Origin: a bacterium
GTDB lineage: Bacteria; SAR324; NAC60-12
Assembly: GCA_965205865.1 (NCBI GenBank)
Contig: CBDBHR010000029.1
Span: 160,001-224,000, forward strand
DNA: 64,000 nt
Reading direction: 5' to 3'
The translations under genes and the position numbers were made by a program. Shown in pieces: positions 6,915 to 32,639 of the stretch. The notes below the pieces were generated by a model. The model worked only from the letters and a program-made list of their open reading frames with translations, ran no database searches and was not told where the DNA came from. The first letter of the stretch is position 1. Every line of letters starts with the position of its first letter.

Positions 6915-6965
6915 GAGGCCCTCCTCTCGATTGACAAGAACGATTGATAACGATGCTGTATGTGA

Positions 6966-8439: not shown

Positions 8440-10442
8440 GTGTTCCTCCTTTCTACCTGAACCAGAGGGACGACGAGTTCTTCGAGAGTCGCGCCACCGT
8501 GGCCGACAAGGCGTTTGCTCGTCTGCGTAAATGCCAGGCGGCCAGGAGCCAATAGGGGCAAATAGTCTTCCGGTAGTCCAACCGTTGGCCATTCCAAAGC
8601 ATCCGGGAATCGTTTTTTGATTTGACCACGCAGTAAAGAATCGGAATAAATACGAACTCGTTCGCCGCGCAAATCCGCAACCGCCCCTTCAGCGGGACGA
8701 CCACATCCGGAGGCTTCGATATTTCCGTGATCGGAGGTCAGGCAGACATGGAATCCATTATCCAAAAGCGAATCGACGAGGCGCGCCATGAACGGCTGTC
8801 CGGCCCACTGTCGTACCTGGTTGCGCATGCCTGCTGCTCCCAGTTCCATACCGTGCATGATCTTGTCGATTTTGTCGACGACGAGTGCGACAACGCGCGT
8901 TTTGGGGCGGGTAATTATCTCCTCCACGCTACCCAAGGTACCGTCTCCCAGTCCCTTGACGTAGGCAACCTCCTGCTGTGACAACCCCTGGTCCGCCCAA
9001 AACTGCGTCCACAGAGCGGGTTCCTTGTCGGTGGTATGGATACTGTTCGGAAAGTAGATGGGTGGTTTTCCTGCAAAGGCAGCTTGTCGTGAAACGGAAG
9101 TGATTGTCGGTATCCAGGCGAAAACCGCGTTTTCACGGAATCGGACCCCCGGACGTTGTTTGACGAGTTCCTGGCGTATGACGATCCACTGGTGCAAGGC
9201 AAGGCCGTCGATCAAGACCAACGCCGCTTTGCGTCCCCCGACTTCGTTGACGTGCCGTGCGAGATGACGCGGGATGTGATGGAGCATTACCGGTGGCACC
9301 GGAGGCAGATTGATCAATCCTGCGTAGCGCTTGGCCAACCAGGGTACGAAGGCAGCATCGATTTGCGCTTGCAACGTTTCCATCTTCCGCTCGGCTGGTT
9401 CCGGCAACGTGGTTTCCGGATCCGGAACGAGAGCCACCAACTCGGCCCAGTTTCTGGCAAAGTGAAACCAGTCTTCGTGCCTCGCGTCCTCCTTGGGAAT
9501 GTTGGACTCCAAGGCGTCGAGGAGCCCATTGACGCGTCGAGTCCGGTCTGCCTGCTCGTCCGTTCGGATGCCAATGAGCAGCCAGGACTTCGACCAGGAT
9601 TCAGCCTGTTCATGGGGAACGGCTTGCAGCAGTCCTTCCAGGAACAGGTTGTCAACGTAGATACGAACGTCATCGTGGTCGAAAGGCAAATCCGAGGGAC
9701 CGGGAAGTTCAAAACCATAGACTTTCTCCTTTTCATGGACGCCCGTGCCATCCTGATTCGCCAACTGCTCGAGAAAGACGGGCCAGCGTTCCTGGAGGAA
9801 GGCGAAAAAAGCTTCCCGCTCCGGGATGATCGTTTCCAGGGGCCAATCGTCAAAACTTCCTTGTTTACGGAGAACCCCTACAAAGCGTTCATCGAGCGAA
9901 GCCGGGATTCGCTGTTCCCGGTAATGGCGACGCAGCAGCACGCGCAGCAGATCGGACGGCTTTTTGATGAGATCCGGCTCAATTTCGAAAACATGGCGCA
10001 GAATGAAATCTTTAGTCGCGTTGTCACCCAAAACAGCAGGCGTATGCCGCTGCTGCGCTTCGTAGAGCGCGTCCAGGTCTCCACGGTCGAGGGCGGTTAC
10101 AATGGGATAGCTCAGATTAGGAAATATCTCTCCAAGGTTGAAAGACAACTGGCGTCCGGCTTGCAGCAGGTCGTATGGTAAAGAACCAAGGTCACCGGCT
10201 GCGGAGCGCAGCACGACCCCCCGCTCCGTTTGCTCATCCCGGTCCCAGCGGACACGGAATGCGGACTCGTAGGCATAGCGGAATATGATATGATCCTCGA
10301 ACGGGATCAGTTCGAAACCCCGCTGCCGTATGTCGGCAAGAACGTCTTCCTCCGGAAGCAAACCGTCCGGGTCGGCAACCACGGTCAGCCGGGACTCATT
10401 GGCAGTGAACTCCCTGAGAATCGAGTCGCGCCAATTACTCAT
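8436..10442 (-). CDS. pglZ: BREX-3 alkaline-phosphatase-family protein PglZ
   Basis: N-terminus MSNWRDSILREF...VADPDGLL; PglZ core motifs LIDGL, PTITSVSRQAAFAG, TSDHG, HGGATLEE. Confidence 0.92.
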   Translation of the reverse strand: MSNWRDSILREFTANESRLTVVADPDGLLPEEDVLADIRQRGFELIPFEDHIIFRYAYESAFRVRWDRDEQTERGVVLRSAAGDLGSLPYDLLQAGRQLSFNLGEIFPNLSYPIVTALDRGDLDALYEAQQRHTPAVLGDNATKDFILRHVFEIEPDLIKKPSDLLRVLLRRHYREQRIPASLDERFVGVLRKQGSFDDWPLETIIPEREAFFAFLQERWPVFLEQLANQDGTGVHEKEKVYGFELPGPSDLPFDHDDVRIYVDNLFLEGLLQAVPHEQAESWSKSWLLIGIRTDEQADRTRRVNGLLDALESNIPKEDARHEDWFHFARNWAELVALVPDPETTLPEPAERKMETLQAQIDAAFVPWLAKRYAGLINLPPVPPVMLHHIPRHLARHVNEVGGRKAALVLIDGLALHQWIVIRQELVKQRPGVRFRENAVFAWIPTITSVSRQAAFAGKPPIYFPNSIHTTDKEPALWTQFWADQGLSQQEVAYVKGLGDGTLGSVEEIITRPKTRVVALVVDKIDKIMHGMELGAAGMRNQVRQWAGQPFMARLVDSLLDNGFHVCLTSDHGNIEASGCGRPAEGAVADLRGERVRIYSDSLLRGQIKKRFPDALEWPTVGLPEDYLPLLAPGRLAFTQTSKRLVGHGGATLEELVVPLVQVERRNT

Positions 10443-12195
10443 GGGAGGGTCCTTTGTACCGGTAGTCAAACACGCACGATGAGCCCACCATCTCGCGAAA
10501 CCACAACGTGGCGCTGGCGCCCATCGAATCAGTCAGGCGGACGGGTTCGTTAAGACTGAAGTGAACCGGTTGCTGCAGACCATCTTCGATCGCCACGTTG
10601 TCGGCATAAAGATAAGTGCGATCCAGATGGTCGAGTATGGGATTCAACCGTCCCCGGATGCCTGGCAGATGTCCCGTCCGGTTGGCGATGATCAGTGAGC
10701 CTCCATTTCGCATGGATTGCATACGCAGATCAAACGGCCCGTCGTCAGGCATATAGTCGCTCGCTACTTGCGCCATGAAACCCGGCGCGGCGCACAGCAC
10801 GGTCATCGGTAGCCTCGTATGCACTTCGAAATCCGCATGCCCAAATTCATCTGTGCGCTCCTCCCGGTATGTCTTGTTCGGATAGATTAACAGTACGTGT
10901 ACGTTCCGCAGGGGTTCGCCAGTGTCGTGGTGGTGGATCGAAATTCCTGCTGCAATGCCGTTGGGCAAGGGCGGGCTAGCTGCCGGTAGGACAAGCTTTA
11001 GTTCCCGTTCGCCAATCAATTCGAAAACGGGCTTCTTCCCGGAGAGAGCGAAGGTCTCGTCCTCGATGACGGCGATGCCCTCGCCGCGTCGTTCGATAAA
11101 GTACTGTCGTCCACCGGCGCCGGGCACGTCACCAGCCGGACATTGTCCCAACCGGGAAGCCAGTAATTCGTTGCGCGTGAACTGACTGGTACGCAGATCT
11201 TCGGTCGTCATGGAGTTGCACAGACCGCCGGGTGAATAGAGTTCCAGCCGGTCATCGAATATGAACAGGCGTATCTGCGACTCCGAAACCGCGTAGTCCC
11301 GGTGAACCACGGCGTTGACCACGGCCTCGAAGACTGCGCATTCACTGTATTGGGGCACGTCACTACGTGCAGGTTGCTTACAGGCGGTGACGCGCCGGTT
11401 GCGAACGACAAAGCGCATCGCATCCAGAATTTGCTTGTCAAGAGGTCCGCTGATATCCTGGGCATCGAGTTGCCGGTTACCGTTCATCCGTTGGCCTTCG
11501 TAGCAAACAGCCTGGATGTAGGCATTCGGCAGCCAGTCACGGGGATCTTTGGCGGCGAGCAGCAAACCACCGACCGTGGCGCGGAGCGTTTCTCTTTGAT
11601 CGTCTTTGAGGAATTTCAGTTTTGAGAGGACGATCTCGGCGGGCTCGTTTATGCGTGAGCTCGCGTACCGTCTCCACAACTCAAGGCGTAAGCTGTTGAT
11701 ACCGGTATCGCGGACGACCTGCGTATCGGTGGCAGTGGCGTCGGATTGTCCACGCGATTGCAGCAATCGCCGGATTGCATCGGGTTGCATCAATCGGTTG
11801 CTGTCGCCTCGTCGCCGGAAGTAGCCGCCGGGCGAGCGGTGAACGGTTTCACCCGCTGGTATTTCGACGAGCAGGACACCTCCTCCCGTTGACGCCTGCA
11901 CCCGGTAGATATTGAATTCCACCGGTGGTTCGATACTGTCCGCACAGATATCGGTCACGAGGTTCACCAGAGCATCCAGTTGCTTCGGGTCCAGTGATTG
12001 CGGCTGACGATCATCCGAGACACCCAGGACGAGACGACCGCCGCGGGAGTTGGCAAACGCAGCTAACTCGTCAGCAAGACTGTCGCGATGAGGGGCGTAA
12101 ATCCGTTGACCTAGAAATCCAACTTCTTTCAGCTCGAGATCACTGTCCTCACCGAGACAAACCTGTTCCCAGAAACTTGTGGTATCGATTGGCAT
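10435..12195 (-). CDS. Schlafen/AlbA_2 + RecG-C-like HATPase_c_4 protein with extra ~175-aa C-terminal beta-rich module
   Basis: GEDSDLELKE, AAFANSRGGRLVLGVSDD, EAVVNAVVHRDY, SPGGL, ERRGEGI; stop overlaps the pglZ start (ATGAGTAA). Confidence 0.85.
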   Translation of the reverse strand: MPIDTTSFWEQVCLGEDSDLELKEVGFLGQRIYAPHRDSLADELAAFANSRGGRLVLGVSDDRQPQSLDPKQLDALVNLVTDICADSIEPPVEFNIYRVQASTGGGVLLVEIPAGETVHRSPGGYFRRRGDSNRLMQPDAIRRLLQSRGQSDATATDTQVVRDTGINSLRLELWRRYASSRINEPAEIVLSKLKFLKDDQRETLRATVGGLLLAAKDPRDWLPNAYIQAVCYEGQRMNGNRQLDAQDISGPLDKQILDAMRFVVRNRRVTACKQPARSDVPQYSECAVFEAVVNAVVHRDYAVSESQIRLFIFDDRLELYSPGGLCNSMTTEDLRTSQFTRNELLASRLGQCPAGDVPGAGGRQYFIERRGEGIAVIEDETFALSGKKPVFELIGERELKLVLPAASPPLPNGIAAGISIHHHDTGEPLRNVHVLLIYPNKTYREERTDEFGHADFEVHTRLPMTVLCAAPGFMAQVASDYMPDDGPFDLRMQSMRNGGSLIIANRTGHLPGIRGRLNPILDHLDRTYLYADNVAIEDGLQQPVHFSLNEPVRLTDSMGASATLWFREMVGSSCVFDYRYKGPSHE

Positions 12196-12383
12196 GGCAT
12201 TTTCCTCAATCTTGCGTAATCATTTTTTGCAGGTGAAATTCAGGAATTTTATGTCCGTTTTGACGGCCCGTGGAGTAGTCTGCCGCCAAGGTCATTTCAT
12301 TCACGTTGGAATCTGAACCGGATAAATTGGTTACCTTTCCTCCCTCGTGCGCATTGATCACGTGTTCGGCTCGACTCATTCTA

Positions 12384-15300
12384 TCAACGATCGATCTTCT
12401 TCAATTCGTCACCAATTCCGAGAAAACCAACTTGCTCCATGCGATCGATTATGTCCAGGCAATGCGTCTTGACGTTTTCATCTGTTGTTTGCTGGTATTG
12501 ACGCACTATGAGCTTTGAAATAATAAGGGCAACTGTCGACTCGCGGTTGGCGATATTCGTCCCTTCTTCATCAACAGACTCCAAAATGCGATCTGCCGCT
12601 GGGCAAATGATCTCTGGAAGTTCGACGTTCGATTCTTCAAGAACGCGTAGAAGGTCATCCGCTCCACTTTCAAATGATTTGCTCTCAATGAACCCTGAGA
12701 TAAAATCTTTCAATTGCAGGAGCCTTTCTCCCGGAATATTAAAAAACACTCTGGAAACCTCTTGTCGTACGGATTTGGAGTTATCGTCAAAGAATTCTCG
12801 CAATAGTTCCGCGCATCGGTCACCGACGGTTTCGTGTAAAAGGTTCCCAGCGTAAACTCTGGCCGCAGCTTTTCGCATCGTTTCGCTGCCTGCCCTGATG
12901 TCTGCCGCATCGCATCCAACGTCAACGTGTTCGAGTTCTGCCAAGGTTATCTGAAGAGCGGCGTTCTCAACTGCTTCAGTATTCTCAGAACGCAGCGTGA
13001 ACTGGATTATTTCTCGTAATTGCGCATAGTGAGTGTGTATGGCGTAATGGATAAAATCACTGAAAGGCTCAGTGGCGCATATCGCTTCTGAACGACCACA
13101 TGTCTTGAGAAACAAATCAACCGCCAGATCTCGATTGAAGTTGAGCAGCGGCAGGAAAGCGTCGACTGCGCAAGTACGCACCGAGATTACCGGATCATTC
13201 GACAAGGATTCCAAGGCGGGTCGCAAGGCATCGATTCGCGATTGATCACCGTAAAGCAGCGATGCTATCGTCTGCGCAGCTTTTCCACGAACAGAATTAA
13301 TCCCGTGAGAATACGGGTCGCCTGAGTAATAACTGGTTCCATTTCCGGCGTCCTTCTGCCAGATGTCCGTCTCCGGATCAGGGTCGCTGGTGGCATAGTA
13401 AGAAACAATCTCCAGGATTCGCGATGGAAGGTGCCGGCTGGCTAAGACCCGGATACAGTGCAGGATTGAAGACCCGCTTGGTCTGCCCGGAAGCGAGTGC
13501 AGACGATCAATGATTTTTAAGAAAGTTTCCGTTGGTGTCGCCTCTATTTTCTGCTGATCGGCTTTCTTTTCCTCTTCACCTTGCGTGAAACGACTGCAGA
13601 GTCCATCAAGAATGGCGGAGAAATAATATGGATGGAGGTCATCGGGCATCTTCATGGCCAACGACGCAAAGCGATCGCGTTCTTTTCTGGAGAAGTCGGT
13701 CAATAACCTGGAAAGTTGTTCAGCATCGCCCTTCAAGAAGTCCGCAGGGTCACCCCTGAAATCGTCAGTCGAACCGTCATATTCTCTCATCGCCGAGATC
13801 CATTGGTCATCGGTCATGAATTCGGCGTTGTTCTTTGGAATTGGAGACTCTACCAATGTTGCAAGGCGCGGCCCCTCTTCCTCCACAATTTTATCGGAGA
13901 GATCAGGAAATTTTCTTTCGAGTTCTTTAATCCTGGACCTCGCCTTTTCTGAAATTCGGGAATCGTCCAATGAGCGAAGCAGGAGCAACTCAGAATAACC
14001 ACGGCGCCTCGGTGTTTGCTTCTCGTAGTCTTGACAGTAGCCGATGATGCGAGATTCAAATTGCTCAAATAGTTTGGCCGAACAATGCGATGAAATTTTC
14101 CGGAGAGCAATCCGGCTGATCGCGCTGTGGCCGGTACCTTCTCCCCTGATGGTCCACATTTCGTATCCAATATCCAATCGCCGCTGGTCCGCAAGCAAAT
14201 ATCCGGCGCACTCGTCGGCGAATTCTTGCGGGTTGTCGGCCCATGATCGAAGCAGCAAATATGAGAAAGTTTCATGTGGATGGTACGCGATCTGCGACAT
14301 ATAATGCCGAAAGAGTTCGACTTCATGCTTTGCCAGATGCTGCAGGGATTTTCGCAGATATAGCAAAATCGCATCGTCGATCTCGTAGGGAGCAACATTG
14401 TTCGACAGGGAAGGCCATAGACGATTCTTTACATATTCTCCTCTTCGATCTTCTGTCTGCAAAACGGTCGCTGTCAGACGAGGAAGCATTTTCTCGACAA
14501 AGTATTGAGGTTCCTTGGAAGCCAACTCCTCGATCATCTGCGCACCCGTGCGCGAATGATTCAGTTTACATTTATCTAAAAAATTCTGGGTTTTACCATC
14601 GTCGAATTGCTTCACGACCCGTTCAAACCATGTCGCCAGAACGTCGATGATGAATTTCGGACTTTTTTTCTTCACATTGTAATACTGGCTCCAAAAGTCG
14701 GAACCGGAGAATTCACCGACATAGTCGTCGTAGGCGCCTTGCGCAATCAGATCGAGATAGAGGGTAGTCATCCCCCTGCTCTGATGAGCTTTGCCCCACG
14801 ACATGATTCGCAGGATTCGCTGTCGCCAGTCCCCGTCGTATCCAACGTAGGGTGCAATCAACTCAGCTATGCGGGATGATCTTCTATCGTGCAGTTCCGG
14901 TATTTCCAGATACCGGGTTGCAATGTCGACGAGACGGGTGTCGTCGGAAGCAAGCCAGTTCTCATAAACTTCAAGCGAGTCCAGCAGGTCGAACCATCCA
15001 ACGTGGCCAGACATTGCTGCGTATATGTAGCGGGAAAGATCTCCATCCAACAAGTATGATTCTGCTAAGGACCAATCCTCCGGTTTTGGCTTGTCGATTT
15101 GCCCGAATCCTGACGCGACCATACGCATGATGTGAAAGCGAACTTTCTGCGATTCGAAGATTTCACGAACATCAGTTATATACTGGTCAAACTCCTCCTC
15201 TCTGCGAAAAGCGAGAATCTGACGCACCTGGGCTCTGCGGAACAAGTGCTGCTGTTTCTTCGATCCCAGAAAATCGACTACGCCATCTCCTTTTGCGCAA

Positions 15301-17051
15301 AATCGCCTGGCGTATGCATAGTCGAAGAACGATTCGTGGAAAAAGCGATACTGATGTTTCTCCTGATCCTCCACCAGCACGTGTTCCGAAATCATTGCCT
15401 TTGCATCTTTGGCCCAGTTGTCAATAACTAACTTGGGAGCAAAGAGAACTTGCTGTTCACTCATCCTCCCAGTCAGCGCATCGATTATAAGATCCCAATG
15501 TGATTCACGCCCAAGGCGTTCCTCCAAATTCTGACGCTTTCTGTCCCAATATCCCTTATACAACTCACCCACCGAATTGAAACGACGGGTCGGATCACCT
15601 TGGAGAAAAAGGAGCAGTTGGAAGGGAATACCGAGTAATTCAAGCTGTTGCTCTGTTGGGTTGAATTGAGCTTGTCCGGCCTTGCGAAGCGATTCCAGGA
15701 TGTCGGTCTTGTCCAATTTCTCGAGCGTATGTTTCGTAAAACCGGACTGAGAATCTCCCAGCCCTCTCAGACGGTAATCGTGATTCAGGTCGAAGTCCCG
15801 GCACGCCATCATCATTTTCATATGGGGATAGGACTGCACTTCATTGAGCAATTCACCGAACACCTCCCACATCCTGGGGTTGCGACCGGAAACGAGGCTG
15901 ATGGCATCCAGTTGGTCGACAACGAGCACGCTCGATGCGTTGTCCGCGATACCAGCGAGCACAACCGCCGGTGAAGCAGGTAAATCCAACTGTTCGCCGA
16001 GTTGACGAGTTGTATTGCAAGGATCGAGAGAGTCCATTCTCAAACATATGTAGGGTGTGCCTTTAACGGAAAGTTGAGAGAGACATTGCGCCAGTATGCA
16101 ACTTTTTCCGAACCCGCCAGGCGCTACGAGCAAAGCGCCGCGCGAATCAGTATCCCAGAGTGTAACAAGAATCTGCTCAACGATATTGCGGACGATTGGA
16201 GCCGAATTAATGAGTTCAAATTCCGTTACCTCCAGATAACGTTGGTTGATCTTTTTGACGAGTTTATTGACAGATAAATCGGTCTTCCAGTCACGGTTAC
16301 CGATCCCATTGCCTTGAAGAAACTGACGAATGTGGTCAGCATTGATCCGGGCGCCAAGACGATCGAGGATGAATTCGGCGATCATTCGACGAATATCGCC
16401 CGGCTTCAAAGGAGAACCGTCCGTGCGATAGAAATGATCGGAAATTCGTTGTTCCACAGTCTGGACTAGATCATTTTCTACACGCGTAATGACTTCAAAA
16501 CTCTTTAAGGCCGAGAATGCGAATTCTTCGTCACCGTTGCAAATTGGAACGATTTTCTGATCAAATTCTTTCTGGAGCTTTGGAAGTGGATTGATTTCAT
16601 TCTGGAGCTCTGGATGCTGGTTGAATTCATTCCGGAGTTTTGGAGAAAGTCTCTTTCGGAACTCGGAAAGGTCGTTTGACGATTGCGCACGTTCGGACAG
16701 TTCGCGAAGTTCGTTCGCCCCGGTTGACGATAAGAAGCGAGTTTCCGCATTGGGATATGAATGCCGCTTATTTAATAAATCGCCAAGGATACTCCGGCCT
16801 GTCTTCTTGTCTTCACGGCAGAGGTCCGCAATCGACCAGTCTCCGCCTGGCTTTTGACGTTTGACGGAGTGGAACTGCCGCTTGTTGTCGTTGGTCTCGA
16901 GATAGAACTCGACGCCGAGCGATTCATCGTCAAAGGGTTCGACCGTAATTGCCTTGAACGTTCCTACGAATACGTCGATGACCTTGTCAACGGTCCAAAC
17001 CGCCTCATATTGGTTACTGATTTTGTTTGCTTCTCCACCTGATCGAGGCAT
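12384..17051 (-). CDS. Avs/AVAST-like STAND (NACHT) NTPase with N-terminal PD-(D/E)XK-like domain and long helical C-terminus
   Basis: 1555 aa. Walker A APGGFGKS, Walker B VLVVDQLD, MACRDFD, FFHESFFDYAYAR. N-terminus NQYE..W...VEP....GVEF......HSVKRQ. Confidence 0.75.
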   Translation of the reverse strand: MPRSGGEANKISNQYEAVWTVDKVIDVFVGTFKAITVEPFDDESLGVEFYLETNDNKRQFHSVKRQKPGGDWSIADLCREDKKTGRSILGDLLNKRHSYPNAETRFLSSTGANELRELSERAQSSNDLSEFRKRLSPKLRNEFNQHPELQNEINPLPKLQKEFDQKIVPICNGDEEFAFSALKSFEVITRVENDLVQTVEQRISDHFYRTDGSPLKPGDIRRMIAEFILDRLGARINADHIRQFLQGNGIGNRDWKTDLSVNKLVKKINQRYLEVTEFELINSAPIVRNIVEQILVTLWDTDSRGALLVAPGGFGKSCILAQCLSQLSVKGTPYICLRMDSLDPCNTTRQLGEQLDLPASPAVVLAGIADNASSVLVVDQLDAISLVSGRNPRMWEVFGELLNEVQSYPHMKMMMACRDFDLNHDYRLRGLGDSQSGFTKHTLEKLDKTDILESLRKAGQAQFNPTEQQLELLGIPFQLLLFLQGDPTRRFNSVGELYKGYWDRKRQNLEERLGRESHWDLIIDALTGRMSEQQVLFAPKLVIDNWAKDAKAMISEHVLVEDQEKHQYRFFHESFFDYAYARRFCAKGDGVVDFLGSKKQQHLFRRAQVRQILAFRREEEFDQYITDVREIFESQKVRFHIMRMVASGFGQIDKPKPEDWSLAESYLLDGDLSRYIYAAMSGHVGWFDLLDSLEVYENWLASDDTRLVDIATRYLEIPELHDRRSSRIAELIAPYVGYDGDWRQRILRIMSWGKAHQSRGMTTLYLDLIAQGAYDDYVGEFSGSDFWSQYYNVKKKSPKFIIDVLATWFERVVKQFDDGKTQNFLDKCKLNHSRTGAQMIEELASKEPQYFVEKMLPRLTATVLQTEDRRGEYVKNRLWPSLSNNVAPYEIDDAILLYLRKSLQHLAKHEVELFRHYMSQIAYHPHETFSYLLLRSWADNPQEFADECAGYLLADQRRLDIGYEMWTIRGEGTGHSAISRIALRKISSHCSAKLFEQFESRIIGYCQDYEKQTPRRRGYSELLLLRSLDDSRISEKARSRIKELERKFPDLSDKIVEEEGPRLATLVESPIPKNNAEFMTDDQWISAMREYDGSTDDFRGDPADFLKGDAEQLSRLLTDFSRKERDRFASLAMKMPDDLHPYYFSAILDGLCSRFTQGEEEKKADQQKIEATPTETFLKIIDRLHSLPGRPSGSSILHCIRVLASRHLPSRILEIVSYYATSDPDPETDIWQKDAGNGTSYYSGDPYSHGINSVRGKAAQTIASLLYGDQSRIDALRPALESLSNDPVISVRTCAVDAFLPLLNFNRDLAVDLFLKTCGRSEAICATEPFSDFIHYAIHTHYAQLREIIQFTLRSENTEAVENAALQITLAELEHVDVGCDAADIRAGSETMRKAAARVYAGNLLHETVGDRCAELLREFFDDNSKSVRQEVSRVFFNIPGERLLQLKDFISGFIESKSFESGADDLLRVLEESNVELPEIICPAADRILESVDEEGTNIANRESTVALIISKLIVRQYQQTTDENVKTHCLDIIDRMEQVGFLGIGDELKKIDR
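16561..16650. repeat. 3 x 30-bp in-frame imperfect tandem repeat within the STAND gene
   Basis: tcaaattctttctggagctttggaagtgga / ttgatttcattctggagctctggatgctgg / ttgaattcattccggagttttggagaaagt, encoding PKLRNEFNQ / PELQNEINP / PKLQKEFDQ. Confidence 0.85.
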
Positions 17052-17115
17052 GTGAATTACCTGCGAAATTATTGAAAATCAATCCACCATAAATTGCGCT
17101 TTGGAAACAAATCGT

Positions 17116-17308
17116 TCATTCGTCTTCTCCGCTGCGCGTCAGAGCTTGGTCGTACCACATGAGGAGTTTGGGGTCCTCCTGGAGCACGGTCTCGGGTATT
17201 TTACGGGCTGCGGTGATGATGGTGACATAGTCGCGCTCTTGCCAGGCTTTTGGAAGCCAGTTCAAATGCATCCAAGCGAAACACCTTCAGGGGTCACTGT
17301 TTGGATTC
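17116..17308 (-). pseudogene. Decayed 3' fragment of a second pglXI methyltransferase
   Basis: Aligns with 25045-~25237. Reads ESKQ*PLKVFRLDAF, then a 2-nt deletion, then AWQERDYVTIITAARKIPETVLQEDPKLLMWYDQALTRSGEDE*. Confidence 0.92.
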
Positions 17309-17414
17309 CAAGAATGCCTTCTTGCGGAAGAAGGCCGGCGGGGTCGGCAACCACGATCAGCCGGGCCACCTTGGCATTGAACTCCCTGAGGATCAAGTCG
17401 CGCCAGTCACTCAC
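17309..17414 (-). pseudogene. 5' fragment (~35 codons) of a second pglZ
   Basis: GTG-SDWRDLILREFNAKVARLIVVADPAGLLPQEGIL vs resident MSNWRDSILREFTANESRLTVVADPDGLLPEEDVL; both share the upstream TACAAAGGA RBS region. Confidence 0.92.
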
Positions 17415-17431
17415 GGATACCTTCCTTTGTA

Positions 17432-18685
17432 TCAATCTTCATCCCCAGGTTGCAGGCTCGCGGCAAAAAAAGTCAGTAAAAGTTCGGAATCGTCAATCAG
17501 ACGATAAACTGGTTTCTTTCCGGAAATTTTTTCACTCTCTTCTATGATGATTGGAACGCCGTCGCCTCGCTTTTCCATGTAAAAACCGCGTCCATCATCT
17601 CCCACTGTTTTCACAGGCGTTTCTGCAAACAAGCTTGTAATCAATTCGTTACGTGTTGCCTGACGCAGGGATATGCTGTCAATGGTCACCGTGTTCGGGA
17701 GAGCACCTGGCGAGTAAATTTCCAGACGATCAGCAAACATGAAAAATCGAATTTTCGAGGCAAAAATAGAGTAGTCCCGGTGAGCCACGGCATTGACAAT
17801 TGCCTCGAAGACGGCTCTTTCACTGAATTGTTTCATTTCCACTCTATGGGGCTTTTTCACGGCCGAGACCGTTTGGTTTCTCCTGAGAAAGGCCATTGCC
17901 TGTTCAACTTGCTGATTCAGCGGGCCGCGAATCTGTTGGGCGTCTCTCTGGTAATTGGAATCCTGCTTTTTCCCACGATAGCGCACTGCTTCGATATACG
18001 CGTTGGGCAAAAAGCGTTCGGGCTCCTCACAACAGAACAAAACACCGGCAACCGAAGCCCGAATGATCCCACTTTCTTCTTTCGACAATAGACCACGTTT
18101 AAGGAGCACAATGTCGGCAGGTTCGCTGTACCTGGTTGTATAGTTGGCCGATAGTTTTTCCGACAAATCGTCAATGCTTGCTTGCGGAACCGGCTGTTCC
18201 TCGAATCGAATCAAACGGGCCTGACTTCGTTGCTGGAACAATCGTGCCAGGTATTCGGGAGGCATCTGCCGTCTTGAACTTCCTTGCCGAAAGAAATATC
18301 CCCCGGAACTCCTGTGAACGAAAAGACTGCTTGGAATCTCTATTTTGATCACTGCTTGCGAAACACCGGTACTGTCTGGAACTCGCATGCGAAACGAGCG
18401 AAACAGAACAGGAGGTTGGATGTTATCGTTACAGATTTCATAGACAAAACGTTCGACAGTATCGAGGTTGTCTATAGGAATGCCGACGACGTCTCTCGTC
18501 TTATCATCCACACCCAGCACCAGCACGCCGCCATGGGAGTTGGCGAATGCTGCTAGTTCGTCGGCCAACTCATCATGCCTCGGATCGGAAACCTGGCTGC
18601 CTCTGAATCGGACTGTCTTGAGTTCCAATAAAGAGTTTTCTTCAATATGTATCTTTCGTAGCAGTTCTGCCGTACTTTCAAACAC
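17432..18685 (-). CDS. Schlafen/AlbA_2 + RecG-C-like HATPase_c_4 protein
   Basis: EENSLLELK, AAFANSHGGVLVLGVDD, EAIVNAVAHRDY, SPGAL, EKRGDGV; GTG start at 18685 after GAGGAA. Confidence 0.87.
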   Translation of the reverse strand: MFESTAELLRKIHIEENSLLELKTVRFRGSQVSDPRHDELADELAAFANSHGGVLVLGVDDKTRDVVGIPIDNLDTVERFVYEICNDNIQPPVLFRSFRMRVPDSTGVSQAVIKIEIPSSLFVHRSSGGYFFRQGSSRRQMPPEYLARLFQQRSQARLIRFEEQPVPQASIDDLSEKLSANYTTRYSEPADIVLLKRGLLSKEESGIIRASVAGVLFCCEEPERFLPNAYIEAVRYRGKKQDSNYQRDAQQIRGPLNQQVEQAMAFLRRNQTVSAVKKPHRVEMKQFSERAVFEAIVNAVAHRDYSIFASKIRFFMFADRLEIYSPGALPNTVTIDSISLRQATRNELITSLFAETPVKTVGDDGRGFYMEKRGDGVPIIIEESEKISGKKPVYRLIDDSELLLTFFAASLQPGDED

Positions 18686-18893
18686 GATGTTCCTCAAGTG
18701 CAATGCGGATATAACAATTTTAATTGAGTGGTCGTTCCTCAGACTGCTACTTAGCGACGTTCTTCCAATTCGGCGTCACAGTTGCCAAAGATGAGGGAGA
18801 TAAGTCCACCGTTTCCCGGATAAGTTCATCGAAGAGATAGACATAACGTCCGGTTGAGCCATTATGGACAAAACTTATTGCCGCGTTTTCATT

Positions 18894-20507
18894 TCAGTCT
18901 CTCAGATCCTCTAGTCTTCGGAGCCACTCCGTATTATTTACGGCAACGCGAGATTGTGCTGACGCGAAGCGGTGGGCTATGCTCTGGGCGAATTCTTGTT
19001 TCAGTTCTCCCAACCAGTCAAATCGTTTACCGCATACATCGGTGAAGATGAAACCTCCTTTTTCATCTCGCTCTGCAATGACTGGGGCTCCGTCATTTTT
19101 TGGTTTGAATTTAACCAGCTTCCATTGAGATGCTTTAATTCCAACACTGAAACGCTGAAACGTATTCTTATCTGTGCGCAGAACAAGTTGGATTATCTTC
19201 TCCTTCGGCTTGATCAACGGCAAAAGAAGGAAGGAATACTCATCATTCACCTTCAATCGTACACTGTCACATCTTGGTCTCATACAAAGAAAGTAATTTG
19301 GATCACTTGTCTCGTTCTGCTCCCGCAGGACAGTACCTAAATGTAGTATCAGACGAGGGTCATCAAAGACTGTACGGAAGCTGAACATCCAAGCCAATTT
19401 GTGATCCAGTTTGTTCTCCGGTTTGCCGTTCTTCGAAAATACGGAAGCCAATTTGTCGAAATTTTCCTTTTCCTTTTTTCTGTTTTTCAGGACACTGGGT
19501 TTCTTCTTGTCCCAACCCTCTTTTTGAAGATCAACAGCCTCGTCAAGAGACACTTGCTTGTTTTTTTCGAATATGAATTTCTTGTTCGGCCCGGCTTCTG
19601 CTTCCAGCCATTCATTGACGGCCTTCATCCCCGCCGGACTCTTCTTTGCCGTAGCATCGTCCATGATAGCGTGTAACTCGCTTGTGAGTTGATCCACCAT
19701 TTGCTGTTGTGAGTCTTCGGGAACGGGCAGACACGCCCGATGCGCGAGGAAAGCCGGGTCAAGTTCCGCATGGAATTTATCAAGGACTTTATGAACGTTC
19801 TCTCGAATGGCTGTGAGCGACGTTAAGGCGATGCTGGGAAGGAGTCCTTCGGTCATACTTGCAAAGTCTCTGATGAGTTTTTCTGGTACCTGCTCCTCCG
19901 GAACAGTCCTGTCCTTCAACCCTAATGCGAGTGATATGTCAGATTTCGCATATATTACGATACGACAATGCTGATAGCAGAGCACAACATCATGCTTATC
20001 TCTCTGAAATTTCCATTTCGATTTTTCCAATTCTTGAGCGATAGTTTGTCCGATTCCAGAGATATCCTGCTCCCCCGTGTAGATCGCGATCAAGCGGAGT
20101 TGCTCATGAGCGTTATCTTTCAGAATTTCTTTCAACATCGACATGGTCTTTCTGCCGTTGTCTACGTTCAATTGCCAGTCCAACACCACGATATCGGCCT
20201 GTTTTGCGATACGAACCACTTTGTTGTTGACCGTCGTGTCGTCGGGTCTAGGCGCAATTACGCCACAGATCAACCCATGCCTGGCGAAGGAGTCTACAAG
20301 AACCCGCGCATCAAGACTGTGACGACCTGGCAAGTCGATTCCCTCCGTTTTTTCCGTATTTCCATCCAATGTATGTCGATCTGGTGTAACAAGAGAATGG
20401 TTTGCAGGCGGTGCACCATCAATTCGCGCCTCGTCGTCCACGATAACAGCAGTTTGGAGAAAACGCTTAGCGATTTCCATACAATGTTGGCTGAAGTCAC
20501 TCACCAT
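18894..20507 (-). CDS. Atypical response-receiver-domain protein (Response_reg_2-like) with long C-terminal region
   Basis: AVIVDDEA, ADIVVLDW (putative phosphoacceptor Asp), IAIYTGE, IYAK; C-terminal LGTVL...LCMRPRCDSVRL; overlaps the upstream GHKL gene. Confidence 0.78.
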   Translation of the reverse strand: MVSDFSQHCMEIAKRFLQTAVIVDDEARIDGAPPANHSLVTPDRHTLDGNTEKTEGIDLPGRHSLDARVLVDSFARHGLICGVIAPRPDDTTVNNKVVRIAKQADIVVLDWQLNVDNGRKTMSMLKEILKDNAHEQLRLIAIYTGEQDISGIGQTIAQELEKSKWKFQRDKHDVVLCYQHCRIVIYAKSDISLALGLKDRTVPEEQVPEKLIRDFASMTEGLLPSIALTSLTAIRENVHKVLDKFHAELDPAFLAHRACLPVPEDSQQQMVDQLTSELHAIMDDATAKKSPAGMKAVNEWLEAEAGPNKKFIFEKNKQVSLDEAVDLQKEGWDKKKPSVLKNRKKEKENFDKLASVFSKNGKPENKLDHKLAWMFSFRTVFDDPRLILHLGTVLREQNETSDPNYFLCMRPRCDSVRLKVNDEYSFLLLPLIKPKEKIIQLVLRTDKNTFQRFSVGIKASQWKLVKFKPKNDGAPVIAERDEKGGFIFTDVCGKRFDWLGELKQEFAQSIAHRFASAQSRVAVNNTEWLRRLEDLRD

Positions 20508-23472
20508 TGTTTTCCTCTTCTGTATGTGTTTGAATAGGTCGGATGACGAACGTAGTCCCTTTAGCGTCCTTGTCGTCTTTGAGGGTCAAATCGTAGCCCA
20601 CCCGACGAAGCACTTCGCGGGAAATGTGTAATCCCATTCCTCGGCCCCCTGGTTTTCTTGTAAATCCGAACTCAAAGATCGTTTCACGATCCCTCGTTAC
20701 TACTCCCGGACCAGTATCGGAAACCAGAAAGATTTGGTCCCTCGCATCAAGTTCAATCTGTCGTTCCTTGGATGGGTGTTGTTGCGAAAGCCAGTAGACC
20801 GCATTATCAACGAGATTGACGAAAACCGGATAGAAGGACGAAGGATATCCCGTTATTTTTATCTTGGAGAACGACTCTGTTTGTACGAACTCGATGTGGT
20901 GACGCGTGAATCTTTCTCGAAAAAGATCGTTGAGAAATGCATGAATCTCGAAACCGCGAATATCCACGGCCTTGCGATAGAGTCTTCTGTGGAGTGGCGT
21001 AAATAGCGTCAGATACCCGTCCAAGTGGTCAAAACTGGCACGAATATTATGGTAGAGTCCTTCGAGATCTTTATTGATGTCAGCCCATGCCTTCAGTCTT
21101 CGCAGGTTATTACGAATAGAACGAACCGTGGCATTGAATTCATGATTGATGATCTCTACCGCCATGCCGAGCTGAGCCAATTGCAAGTCGGCCTCGGCTT
21201 CCTCTTCAAGTAAGACGTTTCGCTGCTCGACTGCCACGAGTTGATCAAGCGCTGATGTCTCGCCGCTCAAGTCGATCGCTTCAAGTTGTCCAAGAAGCGA
21301 TTCAAGCAAGCCGGATCTATCTTCAGCAACCTGCAGGATTCGCAATTCCAAAACGTCCCGTGTCCTCACGAAATCCTCATCTGTCAGTTCGGACACGTCA
21401 GTCCGCTGAAATTCACTGACAACAGCACGTAGCTCCGCTTCCACCTCGCCGATGCATACTCTGGCGACATCGTGAACTTCCGTGGCTATTTTGTCCGCTT
21501 TTTGCACAACTGTCGTTCCTCTGTCCCTTGTTTTATGCCTGGCCTGCTTCGCCAAATCATCCAACGTGGTTTCTACTCGCAGCCTCCGGTCAATCTCTAT
21601 GCGGGCTTTTGCGGCTTCATCCTCAACAAGGTCTTCGATTAGTTCGCGTGTCTGCCGGAATACGCTCTTCGTGAGTCTCGAGAACTCTGCGGTGTAGTCA
21701 CTCCATTCTTTCTGCATCGCTTTGTTCAAGGCTATTCTGGGACGCGTAATCCTGTAGCGGGACTCGAGCTTCTGTAGCTCCACACGAGCATGTTGCTCTA
21801 CTTGAATGATTTCCAGTGCAGCCTGTTGAGAATCAGCAATACGGCACGCACGCCCGAGTTTCTCGGAAACGTCCTGGCTCAATTGGAGTGATTCCTCTTC
21901 CGGAGCACCGGAAGACACCTGGTTGAAGAACCAATTAAGATCCTTCGCCAGTTTGTCTTTCTTCTCAGAAACCAACTTCTCCCGTCGTCGCCGGTCCAAT
22001 TCTATCTTCTCAAGCTCTGCCTTCTGTTTTTTAAATCTCTCACCGTGCACACCTTCTGTTCGGAAAAAATCCGCGGCCATTTGCAGAAAAAATTGTTTCA
22101 GGATGCTCTTAAACTGGCGATATGCCCTATTTTCTCGGAATCCTTCTCGCCCGGCTTTTTCGCTTAGATCGCGATTATTTTCATTATCAATCTCGACGAC
22201 TCCAAACATTTTTCGGTGAGAAAAGTAGTAATAAGAAGCGCCCTTTGTTCTGTTAAACTCTATATCTAGCCAGTCATAGTCCGTGTCACCATACGGCAGG
22301 ATGCGCACACCATTCCGGTAGATGTACAGACCTCCATTCTTTCCCATCTTTTGAGTCATGCGAACGTGATCTTCCGGGGGAATGGCGGAATGCAATCCTT
22401 CTCCCTCAATTGCTGCAACATTGATCGCAAAGGGGCCGCAATCCGTCCGGTTTCCTCCAGCTCCCTGCCACGGAATCACGTGACCATCATTGGCTTCGCC
22501 GTATATCGACACTTCGCCTTCGAATTGGCCATACTCGTCGAAACGCCCTCTTATTTGATGATCAGCGTTTAGAAATTCTTCAGGCGTGAAAAACTCTCCT
22601 TCGGCAATCAGGTCCTCAGCGGTCTCATCGGTTTTATGGTCTCTGAAAGCTGTTTGGATAACAGGAGGTGAATGGTCCGGTGTCATCGTGTTCGTGAAGC
22701 CCAACAGGGCCTTCGTCATCGGTGTTGCCTTGTTGAATCCCGGCTCGCCGTCTATGTCTATGGGAAGAAGATCGGAACTCGGCAAAATGATGAAGTAGGT
22801 TCCACTTCCCGTGCCACACAGCGTAGGACCGTCAAGATAAGAGTCGATGTCTTGGGGATTGACCCTGAACTGCTCGAGTTCTTCGTTAAGACGAGCGTAG
22901 AAATTATCTCCTATTACGGTTTTGAGGTGCTCATTGTTCTTGTCGAACTCCGCAACCATCTGTGACACTTCCTCCCCTGAAGGTAGTTCCCCGCCAGGAA
23001 AGGTACGAATGGAAATCCGGATATCTTCGAGATCCACTCCCGGACATTCAAAGAGGCTCCAGTTAACGAATGCTGCGGTCAAATCAGACAAAGATCCCTC
23101 GCGTCTGGCGCGAGTGAGCACGAGAACCTGGGGACCGATCGTTGCGATCGCCAGACGACCAATTCCCTTTTCGCCCAGCATGGGCCGCGATTCCTTGTTG
23201 GGATCTTTCTGTGGTGTTTCCAACCCGACGGCAGTGAGCTTGCTTTCGGTGCCGATAGTGAGCCATCGACGGACAAAGTCCTCTTCAGTCATTCCCATGC
23301 CATCGTCGCGCAATACGAACAGGCTATCGGTACGATAGTAATCGATTTCGACGTGTTCCGCATAAGCATCGTGGGCGTTCTTGAACAATTCGCTGATTGC
23401 AGTAGGAATCCCTGCAATCTGTTGCCGTCCAAGCATGTCCAGAGTTCTTGCGCGCGTCTTGAATGTCTCCAT
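20497..23472 (-). CDS. MORC/MutL-like GHKL ATPase fused via coiled coil to a histidine-kinase module
   Basis: N-terminal ELFKNAHDA, DDGMGM, GEKGIGR; H-box-like IINHEF; C-terminal NLVDNA, DTGPGV, FTRKPGGRGMGL. Confidence 0.85.
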   Translation of the reverse strand: METFKTRARTLDMLGRQQIAGIPTAISELFKNAHDAYAEHVEIDYYRTDSLFVLRDDGMGMTEEDFVRRWLTIGTESKLTAVGLETPQKDPNKESRPMLGEKGIGRLAIATIGPQVLVLTRARREGSLSDLTAAFVNWSLFECPGVDLEDIRISIRTFPGGELPSGEEVSQMVAEFDKNNEHLKTVIGDNFYARLNEELEQFRVNPQDIDSYLDGPTLCGTGSGTYFIILPSSDLLPIDIDGEPGFNKATPMTKALLGFTNTMTPDHSPPVIQTAFRDHKTDETAEDLIAEGEFFTPEEFLNADHQIRGRFDEYGQFEGEVSIYGEANDGHVIPWQGAGGNRTDCGPFAINVAAIEGEGLHSAIPPEDHVRMTQKMGKNGGLYIYRNGVRILPYGDTDYDWLDIEFNRTKGASYYYFSHRKMFGVVEIDNENNRDLSEKAGREGFRENRAYRQFKSILKQFFLQMAADFFRTEGVHGERFKKQKAELEKIELDRRRREKLVSEKKDKLAKDLNWFFNQVSSGAPEEESLQLSQDVSEKLGRACRIADSQQAALEIIQVEQHARVELQKLESRYRITRPRIALNKAMQKEWSDYTAEFSRLTKSVFRQTRELIEDLVEDEAAKARIEIDRRLRVETTLDDLAKQARHKTRDRGTTVVQKADKIATEVHDVARVCIGEVEAELRAVVSEFQRTDVSELTDEDFVRTRDVLELRILQVAEDRSGLLESLLGQLEAIDLSGETSALDQLVAVEQRNVLLEEEAEADLQLAQLGMAVEIINHEFNATVRSIRNNLRRLKAWADINKDLEGLYHNIRASFDHLDGYLTLFTPLHRRLYRKAVDIRGFEIHAFLNDLFRERFTRHHIEFVQTESFSKIKITGYPSSFYPVFVNLVDNAVYWLSQQHPSKERQIELDARDQIFLVSDTGPGVVTRDRETIFEFGFTRKPGGRGMGLHISREVLRRVGYDLTLKDDKDAKGTTFVIRPIQTHTEEENNGE

Positions 23473-23473
23473 C

Positions 23474-24535
23474 TTAAGTATATGCTCGTATTTCTTTCAG
23501 GTGTTCGGTGACGTGCTGCCCGATGATCTTTGCCAGTCTTACGGGTACGGCATTGCCGATCTGCCGAGCCATTGAGGTGAGGCTTCCCTCAAAAAGAAAA
23601 TCATGCGGGAACGTCTGCAGACACGCCGCTTCGCGTACGCTTATGGCTCTGTCCTGTTCCGGATGTCCGAAACGGCCATTGGAGTAGCTGATACATCGCG
23701 TCGTCAACCCGGAGGCGGGTCGATCCCAAGACATACGGCCGTAAACGTCACTGTACCCCGGAGTTTTCTTATGACACTCAAGTCGAAGTCGTTTCGGCCA
23801 ATCCCCGTGACCACCGCCTTCTGGCGTTGCTCGCACTCGTTCCATGTTATGTTTTGATAATCCTGCAGCACGATGATTCGGAACAGTCGCGTCTTCCTCA
23901 CCGGCGGCGATGGGTGGTAGATCTTCAATCCAATTCCTCACAGTTTCGTAGTTTAGTTTTGTTGTTTCGGGTCCGTTCGTCTCCGGTGGCAGTTCAATGG
24001 GTCCATGGAGACTTGCCAGAAGCACAAGTCGACAGCGACTCTGAGGGACGCCATACTTCATGAGTGACACTCGCTTGTATGCAACATAATAGCCGGCGTT
24101 TTTGAGGCTTTGAAGAAATCCGCCGAACGGCTGAGTGTGGTGGTTCAACTTCTGGAGACCTGGCACGTTCTCGACAAACACGATATCCGGCTTGCAAACA
24201 TTGACAAGCTTAGCGAAATAATAAAGAAGTGGCACCCGATCGTCCTCTTCTCGTGCGGGACGCATGGTATTCTGCTTTGTAAACGGCTGACATGGTGCGC
24301 ATCCGCAGAACAGAATGGGATTCGGTCTCTGAGCAGCTAGAAGCGAACTAACGTGACTGACCGATGTTTCACAGATATCCGCGAGTTCGAAGTGGACGGA
24401 AGGAAAATTTATTTGGAAAGTGCGTTGTGAGTCCGGGTCGCAATCGAGCGCGAAAACGATTTCCATCCCGGCATCACGAAATCCGCAACTCGCTCCGCCA
24501 CAACCGGAGAAAAAATCGAATACCTTGACGTTCAT
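23474..24535 (-). CDS. dcm: DNA (cytosine-5)-methyltransferase
   Basis: DFFSGCGG, APCQPF (catalytic PC), ENVPG, QSRCR, REAACLQTFP, QIGNAVP; ATG 24535 overlaps the vsr stop (ATGA). Confidence 0.95.
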   Translation of the reverse strand: MNVKVFDFFSGCGGASCGFRDAGMEIVFALDCDPDSQRTFQINFPSVHFELADICETSVSHVSSLLAAQRPNPILFCGCAPCQPFTKQNTMRPAREEDDRVPLLYYFAKLVNVCKPDIVFVENVPGLQKLNHHTQPFGGFLQSLKNAGYYVAYKRVSLMKYGVPQSRCRLVLLASLHGPIELPPETNGPETTKLNYETVRNWIEDLPPIAAGEEDATVPNHRAAGLSKHNMERVRATPEGGGHGDWPKRLRLECHKKTPGYSDVYGRMSWDRPASGLTTRCISYSNGRFGHPEQDRAISVREAACLQTFPHDFLFEGSLTSMARQIGNAVPVRLAKIIGQHVTEHLKEIRAYT

Positions 24536-24969
24536 ACTCTCACTTTCCCTTGGCAAAGATTTTCTTCGAAGAAACGACGTATTTTCCCTGCGAGCCGATT
24601 TTGGTCTCTTGTCTCGCACTCCCATATTATCATTACCCCCCAGCCAGCCTCCCGGAGAGCAGTGGTGTTTTGCTGATCACGTTCCATGTTTCGTGACAGC
24701 TTCTGTTCCCAAAAAGCGCTGTTCGTTGCGGGGCGTTTTGCTTTCGCGCAATGCCTGTGCCCGTGCCAGAAACAACCGTGTACGAAAATTACTTTCCCGT
24801 ATAGTGGGAACACCAAGTCAGGTTTGCCAGGTAGCCCCTTCCTATATAACCGGAAGCGATAACCCAGGCTGTGGGTTACTTGTCGTACCAGAAGCTCTGG
24901 CTTTGTTCCTGTCGTGCGTATGCGCGCCATGATTTCGCTACGCTTCTCACGACTGTATATATCATTCAT
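24532..24969 (-). CDS. vsr: Very short patch repair endonuclease
   Basis: RSEIMARIR..GTKPE, LPGKPD, FVHGCFWHGH, IWECE. Confidence 0.95.
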   Translation of the reverse strand: MNDIYSREKRSEIMARIRTTGTKPELLVRQVTHSLGYRFRLYRKGLPGKPDLVFPLYGKVIFVHGCFWHGHRHCAKAKRPATNSAFWEQKLSRNMERDQQNTTALREAGWGVMIIWECETRDQNRLAGKIRRFFEENLCQGKVRV

Positions 24970-25044
24970 AAGATGAACTCAATAACAATGGATCAACTCG
25001 CATAAGGTAATCACCGTCTTAAACTGCGTTTGGAAACCGATCGT

Positions 25045-32605: not shown

Positions 32606-32639
32606 CACGTCTGCTCTCTGGCAATTGAATTTGCCGTCT

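Follow-up and report, generated by a model that had tools for sequence, protein, structure and literature searches.

How two cassettes of cargo genes came to lie one behind the other in a single slot of a BREX type 3 (BREX-3) operon, and what the short stretch between them records, is the question raised by a 64,000-nucleotide piece of bacterial DNA from the SAR324 lineage (assembly GCA_965205865.1, contig CBDBHR010000029.1, positions 160,001 to 224,000 of the forward strand). The whole piece is called the window here, and coordinates without a locus name are positions in it. A first-pass annotation of the window had described a chimera on the minus strand, in which the 5' end of a pglZ gene is fused at about 17308/17309 to the 3' end of a pglXI gene between two cassettes stacked in the pglXI-pglZ slot. 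Both the chimera (two abutting blastn matches) and the stacking (gene order by Pfam and PADLOC) were confirmed. The genes are ordered pglXI-[Vsr, Dcm, HK, RR, AlbA423]-pglZ'::'pglXI-[1555-aa nuclease/NTPase, AlbA586]-pglZ, where HK and RR stand for the HATPase/HEF_HK and Response_reg_2 proteins and AlbA423 and AlbA586 for two AlbA_2/HATPase_c_4 proteins of 423 and 586 amino acids (aa). The stretch between the cassettes, 17090-17431, is in all probability a non-functional recombination scar left by the fusion of two diverged, once-functional BREX-3 loci, and not the product of a local duplication.

The chimeric stretch and the origin of its halves

In a blastn comparison of 16951-17600 with the window, 17090-17306 matched 25020-25237 (82% identity over 219 nucleotides (nt), E 7e-55) and 17309-17431 matched 10337-10458 (80% over 123 nt, E 1e-26), the pglXI and pglZ matches adjoining within 2 nt and the scar measuring about 340 bases in all. 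Pairs in agreement with these were returned by an ungapped repeat search (17100-17251/25029-25180 at 86% and 10337-10444/17309-17416 at 82%), and no further copy of the scar was found in the genome, where all three matches lay within this locus. The two halves match the corresponding ends of full-length genes of the same locus, in equal orientation:

17309..17431, minus strand: pglZ' half of the scar, with ribosome-binding site, GTG start (17414) and 35 codons; 80% identity with 10337-10458
17090..17308, minus strand: 'pglXI half of the scar, with the final 63 codons, the stop and 26 nt beyond, carrying one TGA and a net 2-nt deletion (blastn and translation)
17262..17414, minus strand: 50-codon open frame arising from the fusion (translation)
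25020..25237, minus strand: repeat copy at the 3' end of the resident pglXI, with the final 63 codons, the stop and about 26 nt beyond; 82% identity with 17090-17306

By translation, the pglZ' half begins with the GTG behind the ribosome-binding site AAGGAAGG and continues for 35 pglZ codons. Beyond the joint, the final pglXI codons (63, where the first-pass annotation had counted about 64) run out of frame with the pglZ part to a stop at 17116-17118, and homology to the resident copy extends about 26 nt past this stop rather than the 15 or so first supposed. The stop and the 2-nt deletion that had been noted in the scar were both located in the pglXI half, as one in-frame TGA (from AGA) and a net loss of 2 nt. 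As pglZ retains 35 codons out of 668 and pglXI 63 out of about 930, neither protein can be encoded, and the 50-codon frame, which leads from the pglZ start into out-of-frame pglXI, probably specifies a junk peptide. At the joint, pglZ homology stops at ...ATTCTTG and pglXI homology starts at GAATCCAAACAG..., with 0-1 and at most 2 shared bases, as judged by comparing the scar with relatives of each parent and not with the parents themselves. Since no more than 1-2 bases are ascribable to both sides, the joint between the pglZ and pglXI parts reads as illegitimate. The outer sides of the scar, on the other hand, are collinear with native neighbours: AlbA423-pglZ' is arranged as in a related locus (L023), and the 26 nt past the pglXI stop as in the resident copy. 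The longest identical run is 32 nt in the pglXI pair (17144-17175/25073-25104) and 15 nt in the pglZ pair; given the 32-nt run, excision via the repeats would be possible in principle.

Differences from the resident genes had been described as mostly synonymous, which holds for the pglXI half and fails for the pglZ half. Over the 63 codons of the former, the differences by codon position were 7/3/25 (25 of 35 at the third), with 20 synonymous and 11 non-synonymous codon differences. An even spread over codon positions, named beforehand as the pattern of simple local duplication and decay, was rejected here (chi-square p 8e-6), and the counts fit those of 27 functional pglXI ends compared with the resident gene (21/14/64% by codon position, p 0.57). 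Such third-position bias argues that the pglXI half diverged under purifying selection and was truncated afterwards, and is not a decayed local copy. Over the 35 codons of the pglZ half the differences were 6/6/7 by position, with 4 synonymous and 12 non-synonymous codon differences. The origin of both halves in a diverged, once-functional locus, as proposed in the first-pass annotation, is therefore carried by the codon bias of the pglXI half and by the surroundings of the pglZ half, which on its own cannot tell decay from divergence. The nearest match to the PglZ N-terminus of the scar, with an N-terminal motif in common, is P0002, which is related to the resident PglZ at 87%. The segment 18707-17309, comprising AlbA423, the spacer and pglZ codons 1-35, is collinear with positions 8689-10106 of L023 (79% over 1,418 nt), and the alignment terminates exactly at the joint (pglZ codon 35). 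AlbA423 and pglZ' are therefore native neighbours that derive from a BREX-3 lineage like that of L023, and together with the AlbA neighbour of the resident pglZ, which is 45% identical to AlbA423, this points to the fusion of two diverged loci.

Scars in related loci and the operon of the window

Related loci comprised 80 anchored on PglZ (genome contigs) and 79 anchored on orthologues of AlbA423 (metagenome contigs), 159 in total, and 46 of the 80 genome loci had a complete pglXI end and pglZ start. A search for similar scars, suggested in the first-pass annotation, yielded eight more chimeras in seven of the 159 loci (seven brxHII5'::pglXI3' and one brxF5'::pglXI3'), or nine in eight sources with the window counted. 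A truncated pglZ start occurred in the window only (search with six PglZ N-termini against the 159 loci and the window). An extra pglXI 3' fragment between two cassettes was present in five of the 46 genome loci (L020, L038, L045, L053 and L086), and in the last four the brxHII 5' end, with its Tudor-domain start, stands directly before the fragment. These brxHII5'::pglXI3' fusions correspond exactly to the window's pglZ5'::pglXI3', with brxHII instead of pglZ flanking the slot on the right; their brxHII and pglXI parts are 68-86% and 74-82% identical, respectively, to the resident ends of their own loci. BrxHII residues 1-44 are joined to the PglXI tail in L093, and L103 has two scars with an identical joint between about residue 135 of BrxHII and PglXI, 85% identical to each other over 639 nt. 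In L120 (6862-7258), brxF codons 1-72 are joined out of frame to the last ~66 codons of pglXI, which implies that brxC and most of pglXI were deleted there. Like those of the genome loci, the chimeras of L093, L103 and L120 separate stacked cassettes. Other pglXI fragments lie behind AlbA (L092 and L094), while short pglXI-tail-like stretches in L090, L098 and L101, following type IIG-like methylase genes in L090 and L101, are ambiguous.

Four of the nine chimeras are intact and in frame (L038, L093 and both in L103), and the other five (L045, L053, L086, L120 and the window) are either broken or fused out of frame; the intact open reading frames (ORFs), which combine a BrxHII Tudor start with a PglXI tail, might have been kept for function. 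Those of L103 span 3285-3980 (231 aa) and 6503-7261 (252 aa) and set apart three cassettes (Ppl-like with AlbA-like, HEC-03, and Ppl-like with AlbA). Between these two scars the differences by codon position were 14/17/38, with 29 synonymous and 32 non-synonymous codons, and selection on the fusion frame is not claimed from counts so ambiguous. The pair is a hint that existing scars can be copied along with cassettes.

Within the last 107 PglXI residues, the first residue of the remnant varies from 29 to 84 among the scars, and the 5' partner is pglZ, brxHII (residues ~30 to 136), brxF or none. No conserved recombination site at a fixed position of the cassette boundary was found, the junctions varying from scar to scar, which speaks for repeated illegitimate events. 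In the window and in L020, L046, L092, L094 and L120, the pglXI breakpoints seem to gather around residues 41-50 of the last 107, that of L120 falling within about 10 codons of the others; no sequence feature accounting for this apparent cluster was found. In L046 (3485-3992), about 200 nt of AT-rich sequence interrupt pglXI where the window has its breakpoint, some 60 codons short of the stop. Several stacked cassettes are found singly elsewhere, namely Gabija (L045) in L024, the three HEC-03 genes (L086) in L026, HEC-02A (L038) in L078 and L081, and PDC-S19 (L053) in L075.

PglZ of this type is highly conserved, with 4,871 relatives at E<=1e-30, many of them at 72-87% identity and from many phyla; the nearest relatives of the resident PglZ (P0002-P0004, 85-87%) come from loci outside the 80 genome loci. 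Across the 46 complete loci, the distance from pglXI to pglZ ranged from 95 nt (L011) to 8,831 nt (L055), and BrxHII stood directly upstream of pglZ in 32 and was missing from that position in 14. Slot cargo, named from 63 cluster representatives of 141 ORFs, included Gabija, Kiwa, HEC-02, HEC-03, IetAS, PsyrTA, SIR2-HerA, PDC-S28, PDC-S19, PDC-M23, Ppl-like and NsnB-like ATPases, and others. Because both the lengths and the defence cargo after pglXI vary in this way, the pglXI-pglZ slot is regarded as a general cargo site. Loci that lack brxHII often keep its first 30-200 codons before pglZ, at times joined to its last 35-160 codons; such remnants just upstream of pglZ were seen in L009, L015, L019, L029, L030, L046, L093, L096, L103, L111, L113 and L128, and suggest that brxHII has been lost repeatedly through internal deletion.

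In the window, 7681-33119 on the minus strand forms a co-oriented BREX type 3 operon (brxF, brxC, a DUF1828 gene, pglXI, two cargo blocks, pglZ and brxA, by Pfam and PADLOC), in which all core profiles of the type (BrxF, BrxC, PglXI, PglZ and BrxA, by PADLOC) were matched on that strand:

32640..33119, minus strand: brxF (PADLOC BrxF, E 5.5e-75)
28877..32608, minus strand: brxC/pglY (PADLOC BrxC and Pfam DUF6079, both E 0)
27908..28684, minus strand: DUF1828 gene embedded in the brxC-pglXI slot (Pfam DUF1828, E 1.4e-25; PADLOC PDC-M24B, E 1.1e-19)
25045..27838, minus strand: resident pglXI (PADLOC PglXI, E 0 and 1.9e-48 on two overlapping ORFs, profile positions 4-821 and 815-918)
17432..24969, minus strand: cassette 1 (Pfam and PADLOC matches, as for its genes)
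24532..24969, minus strand: Vsr, cassette 1
23474..24625, minus strand: C5 cytosine methylase (Dcm), cassette 1
20497..23472, minus strand: HATPase/HEF_HK protein, 991 aa, cassette 1
18894..20507, minus strand: Response_reg_2 protein, cassette 1
17432..18703, minus strand: AlbA423, AlbA_2/HATPase_c_4 protein, 423 aa, cassette 1
10435..17051, minus strand: cassette 2 (Pfam and PADLOC matches, as for its genes)
12384..17051, minus strand: 1555-aa protein with Cap4/LmuA-like nuclease N-terminus and Avs2/PDC-M54A-like NTPase region, cassette 2
10435..12195, minus strand: AlbA586, AlbA_2/HATPase_c_4 protein, 586 aa, cassette 2
8436..10442, minus strand: resident pglZ, ATG at 10442, with an 8-nt overlap into the stop codon region of AlbA586 (PADLOC PglZ, E 0)
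7681..8592, minus strand: brxA (PADLOC BrxA, E 8e-98)

Since tblastn of two BrxHII proteins against the 64-kb window gave nothing below E 0.5, neither brxHII nor a remnant of it, the locus is classed as an apparent BrxHII-less variant of BREX type 3. BrxHII is the Snf2-type helicase that has its place between pglXI and pglZ in the type 3 order brxF-brxC-pglXI-brxHII-pglZ-brxA; in PMC12839542 it is reported in 77% of type 3 BREX systems. The resident pglXI is split over two frames in the window. Short-read contigs from X2, X3 and X6 (two studies) omit a letter at 25350 and thereby bring the gene back into one frame, so that the gene is most likely intact and the frameshift near 25350 most likely an assembly error rather than a pseudogene or a phase switch. 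The DUF1828/PDC-M24B-like gene marks a second cargo slot of the operon, between brxC and pglXI, and the brxC-pglXI distance also varies among related loci, some of which have AlbA-like genes there (L011 and L107). In L088 (2-4254; L170), two different pglXI genes of full-length appearance follow one another in tandem with 9 nt between them, and the genome has a single brxC. The GC content of the window locus is mosaic (about 0.57 in brxF, brxC, pglZ, brxA and AlbA586; 0.47-0.51 in pglXI, cassette 1 and the 1555-aa gene) and gave no assignment of donor or recipient to its parts. In line with the integrase-free accumulation proposed in the first-pass annotation, none of the 18 ORFs in the locus and of 12 flanking ORFs, which are housekeeping genes, showed an integrase, transposase or recombinase domain, and the sole mobility-like match nearby, an IstB/DnaA-type ATPase at 3439-4380, lies about 3.3 kb outside.

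Each AlbA gene directly precedes a pglZ start, AlbA423 that of the scar and AlbA586 the resident one. Orthologues of AlbA423 (57-82% identity, in the 79 metagenome loci) sit, in most of the longer of these loci, behind a gene for a Ppl-like ABC ATPase of about 920 aa, and the two-gene cassette of Ppl-like ATPase and AlbA423-type protein was found in BREX-3 and also beside other methylase systems. No remnant of the Ppl-like ATPase was found upstream of AlbA423 in the window, and with AlbA423 lacking both partner and trace of it, cassette 1 itself looks composite.

Routes to the fused slot

The preferred explanation is that the slot regions of two diverged BREX-3 loci were joined and that the scar records the joining. 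One locus would have contributed ...cargo-AlbA423-pglZ, its pglZ now cut after codon 35, and the other pglXI-[1555-aa gene]-AlbA586-pglZ, its pglXI now cut to the final 63 codons. An incoming and a resident BREX-3 locus may have recombined by one crossover in the long conserved BREX genes, which would serve as the homologous anchor, while the other end was joined illegitimately; this would be homology-facilitated illegitimate recombination or, equivalently, unequal crossover, and would leave both cassettes and one complete BREX gene set with no part played by an integrase. Within the fusion reading, this route of one homologous and one illegitimate crossover is put forward tentatively, at somewhat under an even chance. 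What remains is divided among integration of a circle, tandem loci followed by deletion, and duplication of the slot followed by a swap of cassettes, all of which would yield the same product. The first two of these had been proposed in the first-pass annotation; they were not told apart here, and the route by one homologous and one illegitimate crossover fits at least as well as either.

Several results weigh against the fusion of two diverged loci as reconstructed here. The homologous crossover that the favoured route requires was not located. No parent locus was recovered: the Vsr-Dcm-HK-RR cargo and cassette 2 had no tblastn match in the 80 PglZ-anchored and 79 AlbA-anchored loci, and the loci with the cassette 1 cargo alone or cassette 2 alone that the first-pass annotation had hoped for were not found among those searched. 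The 1555-aa protein had no relative in the searched metagenome contigs and a single one, at 28% identity, in 87 other genomes (88 of the window's phylum were searched). For neither half did any sampled locus stand clearly closer than the resident copy, so that donor and recipient are not assigned. The differences in the pglZ half are evenly spread, as decay would give, although 19 differences reject neither model and the functional PglZ starts nearest to the resident one show likewise flat codon-position counts. Finally, among the short-read contigs listed, none bridges 17164-17431, and the joint therefore rests on the window's own assembly and on the presence of most sampled 31-letter words of 16000-18600 in X2 and X3.

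The assembly was checked with Logan contigs (short-read) placed on 9000-27000, X2 and X3 possibly being the source sample. Of sampled 31-letter words from 16000-18600, 92% were present in X2 and 89% in X3, compared with 22-33% in three runs of another study. Contigs with no differences covered 12224-17164 (X2), 11054-17164 (X3) and 22767-25102 (X3), and they end within the 32-nt run identical in both pglXI copies, as a 31-letter graph does when one genome holds both; they thereby link cassette 2 with the pglXI copy of the scar and cassette 1 with the resident one. The joints listed among the contigs (9661>17135, 9800>25073, 10577>17546 and others) were considered as excision products and rejected, their sides being merely 20-38 letters long at 90% likeness; they are taken to be BREX-3 sequences of other organisms, and none of them is what a crossover between paired repeats would give. 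In X2, X3 and X6 (two studies), contigs also join 18204 back to 16172 with 12 other letters in between, a joint that may stem from related genes of another organism. Summed contig depth in X2 and X3 at the conserved BREX-3 gene ends and AlbA423 (10202-11403, 16813-18615 and 24626-25827) was 4-10 times that of the cassette interiors, and the sample seems to contain several organisms whose BREX-3 ends are near-identical (90% or more).

This coexistence of several BREX-3 bearers, the metagenome type of the assembly (30 contigs, with at least one indel error in the locus, at 25350) and the lack of a bridging contig among those listed are what would favour a chimeric assembly of two strains or of two BREX-3 loci. 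Assemblers join at shared sequence, however, and here pglZ codon 35 meets pglXI at codon -63, unrelated sequences with at most 2 bases in common; the zero-difference contigs assign the two pglXI copies to different cassettes, and eight like scars recur in seven independent assemblies. An artefact is accordingly rated as very improbable, given a joint between unrelated sequences and a design that recurs in seven other assemblies. Just as remote is the idea that the stretch has a function, as a small protein, promoter or RNA, and is not a fossil. It could appeal to the preserved pglZ ribosome-binding site and start, the 50-codon open frame and the intact frames of four of the eight chimeras elsewhere, but the fusion in the window is out of frame, its pglXI part carries a stop and an indel, and the pglZ 5' fragment occurs in none of the 159 other loci. 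No minus-strand promoter-like or terminator-like site was found at the scar, and in Rfam nothing came near threshold (best 13.5 bits, cut-off 40). A local tandem duplication of the slot, from the pglXI 3' end to the pglZ 5' end, with later decay of the scar and a swap of one cassette copy, would produce exactly this form of junction (right-flank 5' joined to left-flank 3'), would suit the even spread in the pglZ half, and has a parallel in L020 and L018, where extra and resident copies share 90-91% identity. It is nonetheless improbable: the third-position bias of the pglXI half indicates divergence under selection and not decay, the AlbA genes beside the two pglZ starts are 45% identical, and the AlbA423-pglZ' block matches the native junction of another lineage.

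Harder to separate from the favoured route, because the anatomy of the product would be identical, are the two that start from other intermediates. Two complete BREX-3 loci in head-to-tail arrangement could have lost, by deletion, the redundant genes between codon 35 of the first pglZ and the last 63 codons of the second pglXI. A pair of BREX-3 loci, L013 and L081, does occur in a single genome, albeit at a distance of about 1.2 Mb, L088 has two different tandem pglXI genes, and in L120 a deletion begins at brxF codon 72 and reaches into the 3' end of pglXI. Yet no tandem pair of complete BREX-3 loci was present in the 159 loci, the genome of L088 has one brxC, and the deletions in L020, L038, L045, L053 and L086 would all need to have taken out a complete gene set while sparing both cassettes, so that this route is regarded as unlikely. 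Alternatively, 'pglXI3'-cassette-pglZ5' may have closed into a circle, with the scar as its junction, and entered a resident gene end by a single homologous crossover, scars later acting as portable homology sites for more excision and integration. The two like scars of L103, which flank different cassettes as if a scar had been copied at each entry, and the 32-nt identical run within the pglXI repeat pair would agree with this. The homology available for the crossover is merely ~105 nt (pglZ) or ~190 nt (pglXI) at about 80% identity, with a longest run of 15 nt in the pglZ pair, and the first circle would itself still require an illegitimate joint; no circle or excision joint appeared among the contig joints listed, which is weak evidence coming from contigs only. 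A circular intermediate is thus rather doubtful, if somewhat less so than the tandem loci.

Similarly speculative, and held with low confidence, is a wider view of the slot as an integrase-free, homology-driven cassette array, in which the scar, after its first formation by an illegitimate event, would travel with its cassette as a portable site for RecA-dependent excision, integration and stacking. Formally the scar equals the junction of a circularised cassette, and as such it could serve many BREX-3 loci of one community.

Relation to known systems

The combination invoked for the favoured route has precedents. In homology-facilitated illegitimate recombination, one homologous anchor and one joint with little or no microhomology insert foreign DNA without a site-specific recombinase. 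The process has reportedly been shown in the laboratory with markers, in transformable bacteria; for the window it is inferred from the product only. Integron arrays likewise accumulate co-oriented cassettes in order at one site inside an operon-like array, and the slot of the window resembles them in its ordered, co-oriented cassettes at a single site. It differs from them in having no integrase and no attC-like repeats (no inverted repeats of 24 nt or more), and in that scar junctions vary.

The embedding of defence genes within BREX, DISARM, type I RM and Hma operons has been described in the main text of Payne et al. (bioRxiv 10.1101/2024.01.29.577857), where the 'genomic sink' idea is the only one offered for its origin and systems with pseudogenes were left out. 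As in the BREX systems presented there, foreign defence cassettes in the window lie between operon genes, and many of the slot families found here are HEC and PDC families of the same authors. No account of such BREX scars was found in the literature searched, and neither Payne et al. nor PMC12839542, whose supplements may list type 3 loci with stacked cargo, speaks of recombination in the main text. Embedding as such is thus already published; what the window adds is the pglZ-flank variant of the scar in a BrxHII-less locus, together with evidence from codon positions and collinearity that points to the joining of two diverged loci.

Embedded defence genes now serve the discovery of anti-phage systems, and how they enter other systems is left unexplained in the papers searched. 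Scars of the kind described here would be physical records of joining events in which cassettes of different BREX-3 loci were combined at the conserved pglXI and brxHII/pglZ ends, through joints that look illegitimate and recurrent and need no integrase. Similar leftovers in other bacteria suggest how nested defence genes may accumulate without one, and the scars provide a model, open to testing, of how layered immunity builds up. Their sequence signature (internal pglXI 3', brxHII 5' or pglZ 5' fragments) could be used to map cassette boundaries and exchange across thousands of loci.

A further likeness is to T6SS (in Vibrio), Rhs and CDI loci, for which Kirchberger et al. 2017 (PMC5361080) describe arrays of orphan immunity genes and C-terminal displacement and propose homology-facilitated illegitimate recombination. 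According to these authors, new modules there enter at a conserved upstream anchor and older ones move downstream with gene-end remnants between them, an arrangement that the window shares. Those are toxin/immunity loci in which the old effector is displaced, whereas in the BREX operon of the window both cassettes are whole and the remnant between them consists of the fused ends of the flanking genes.

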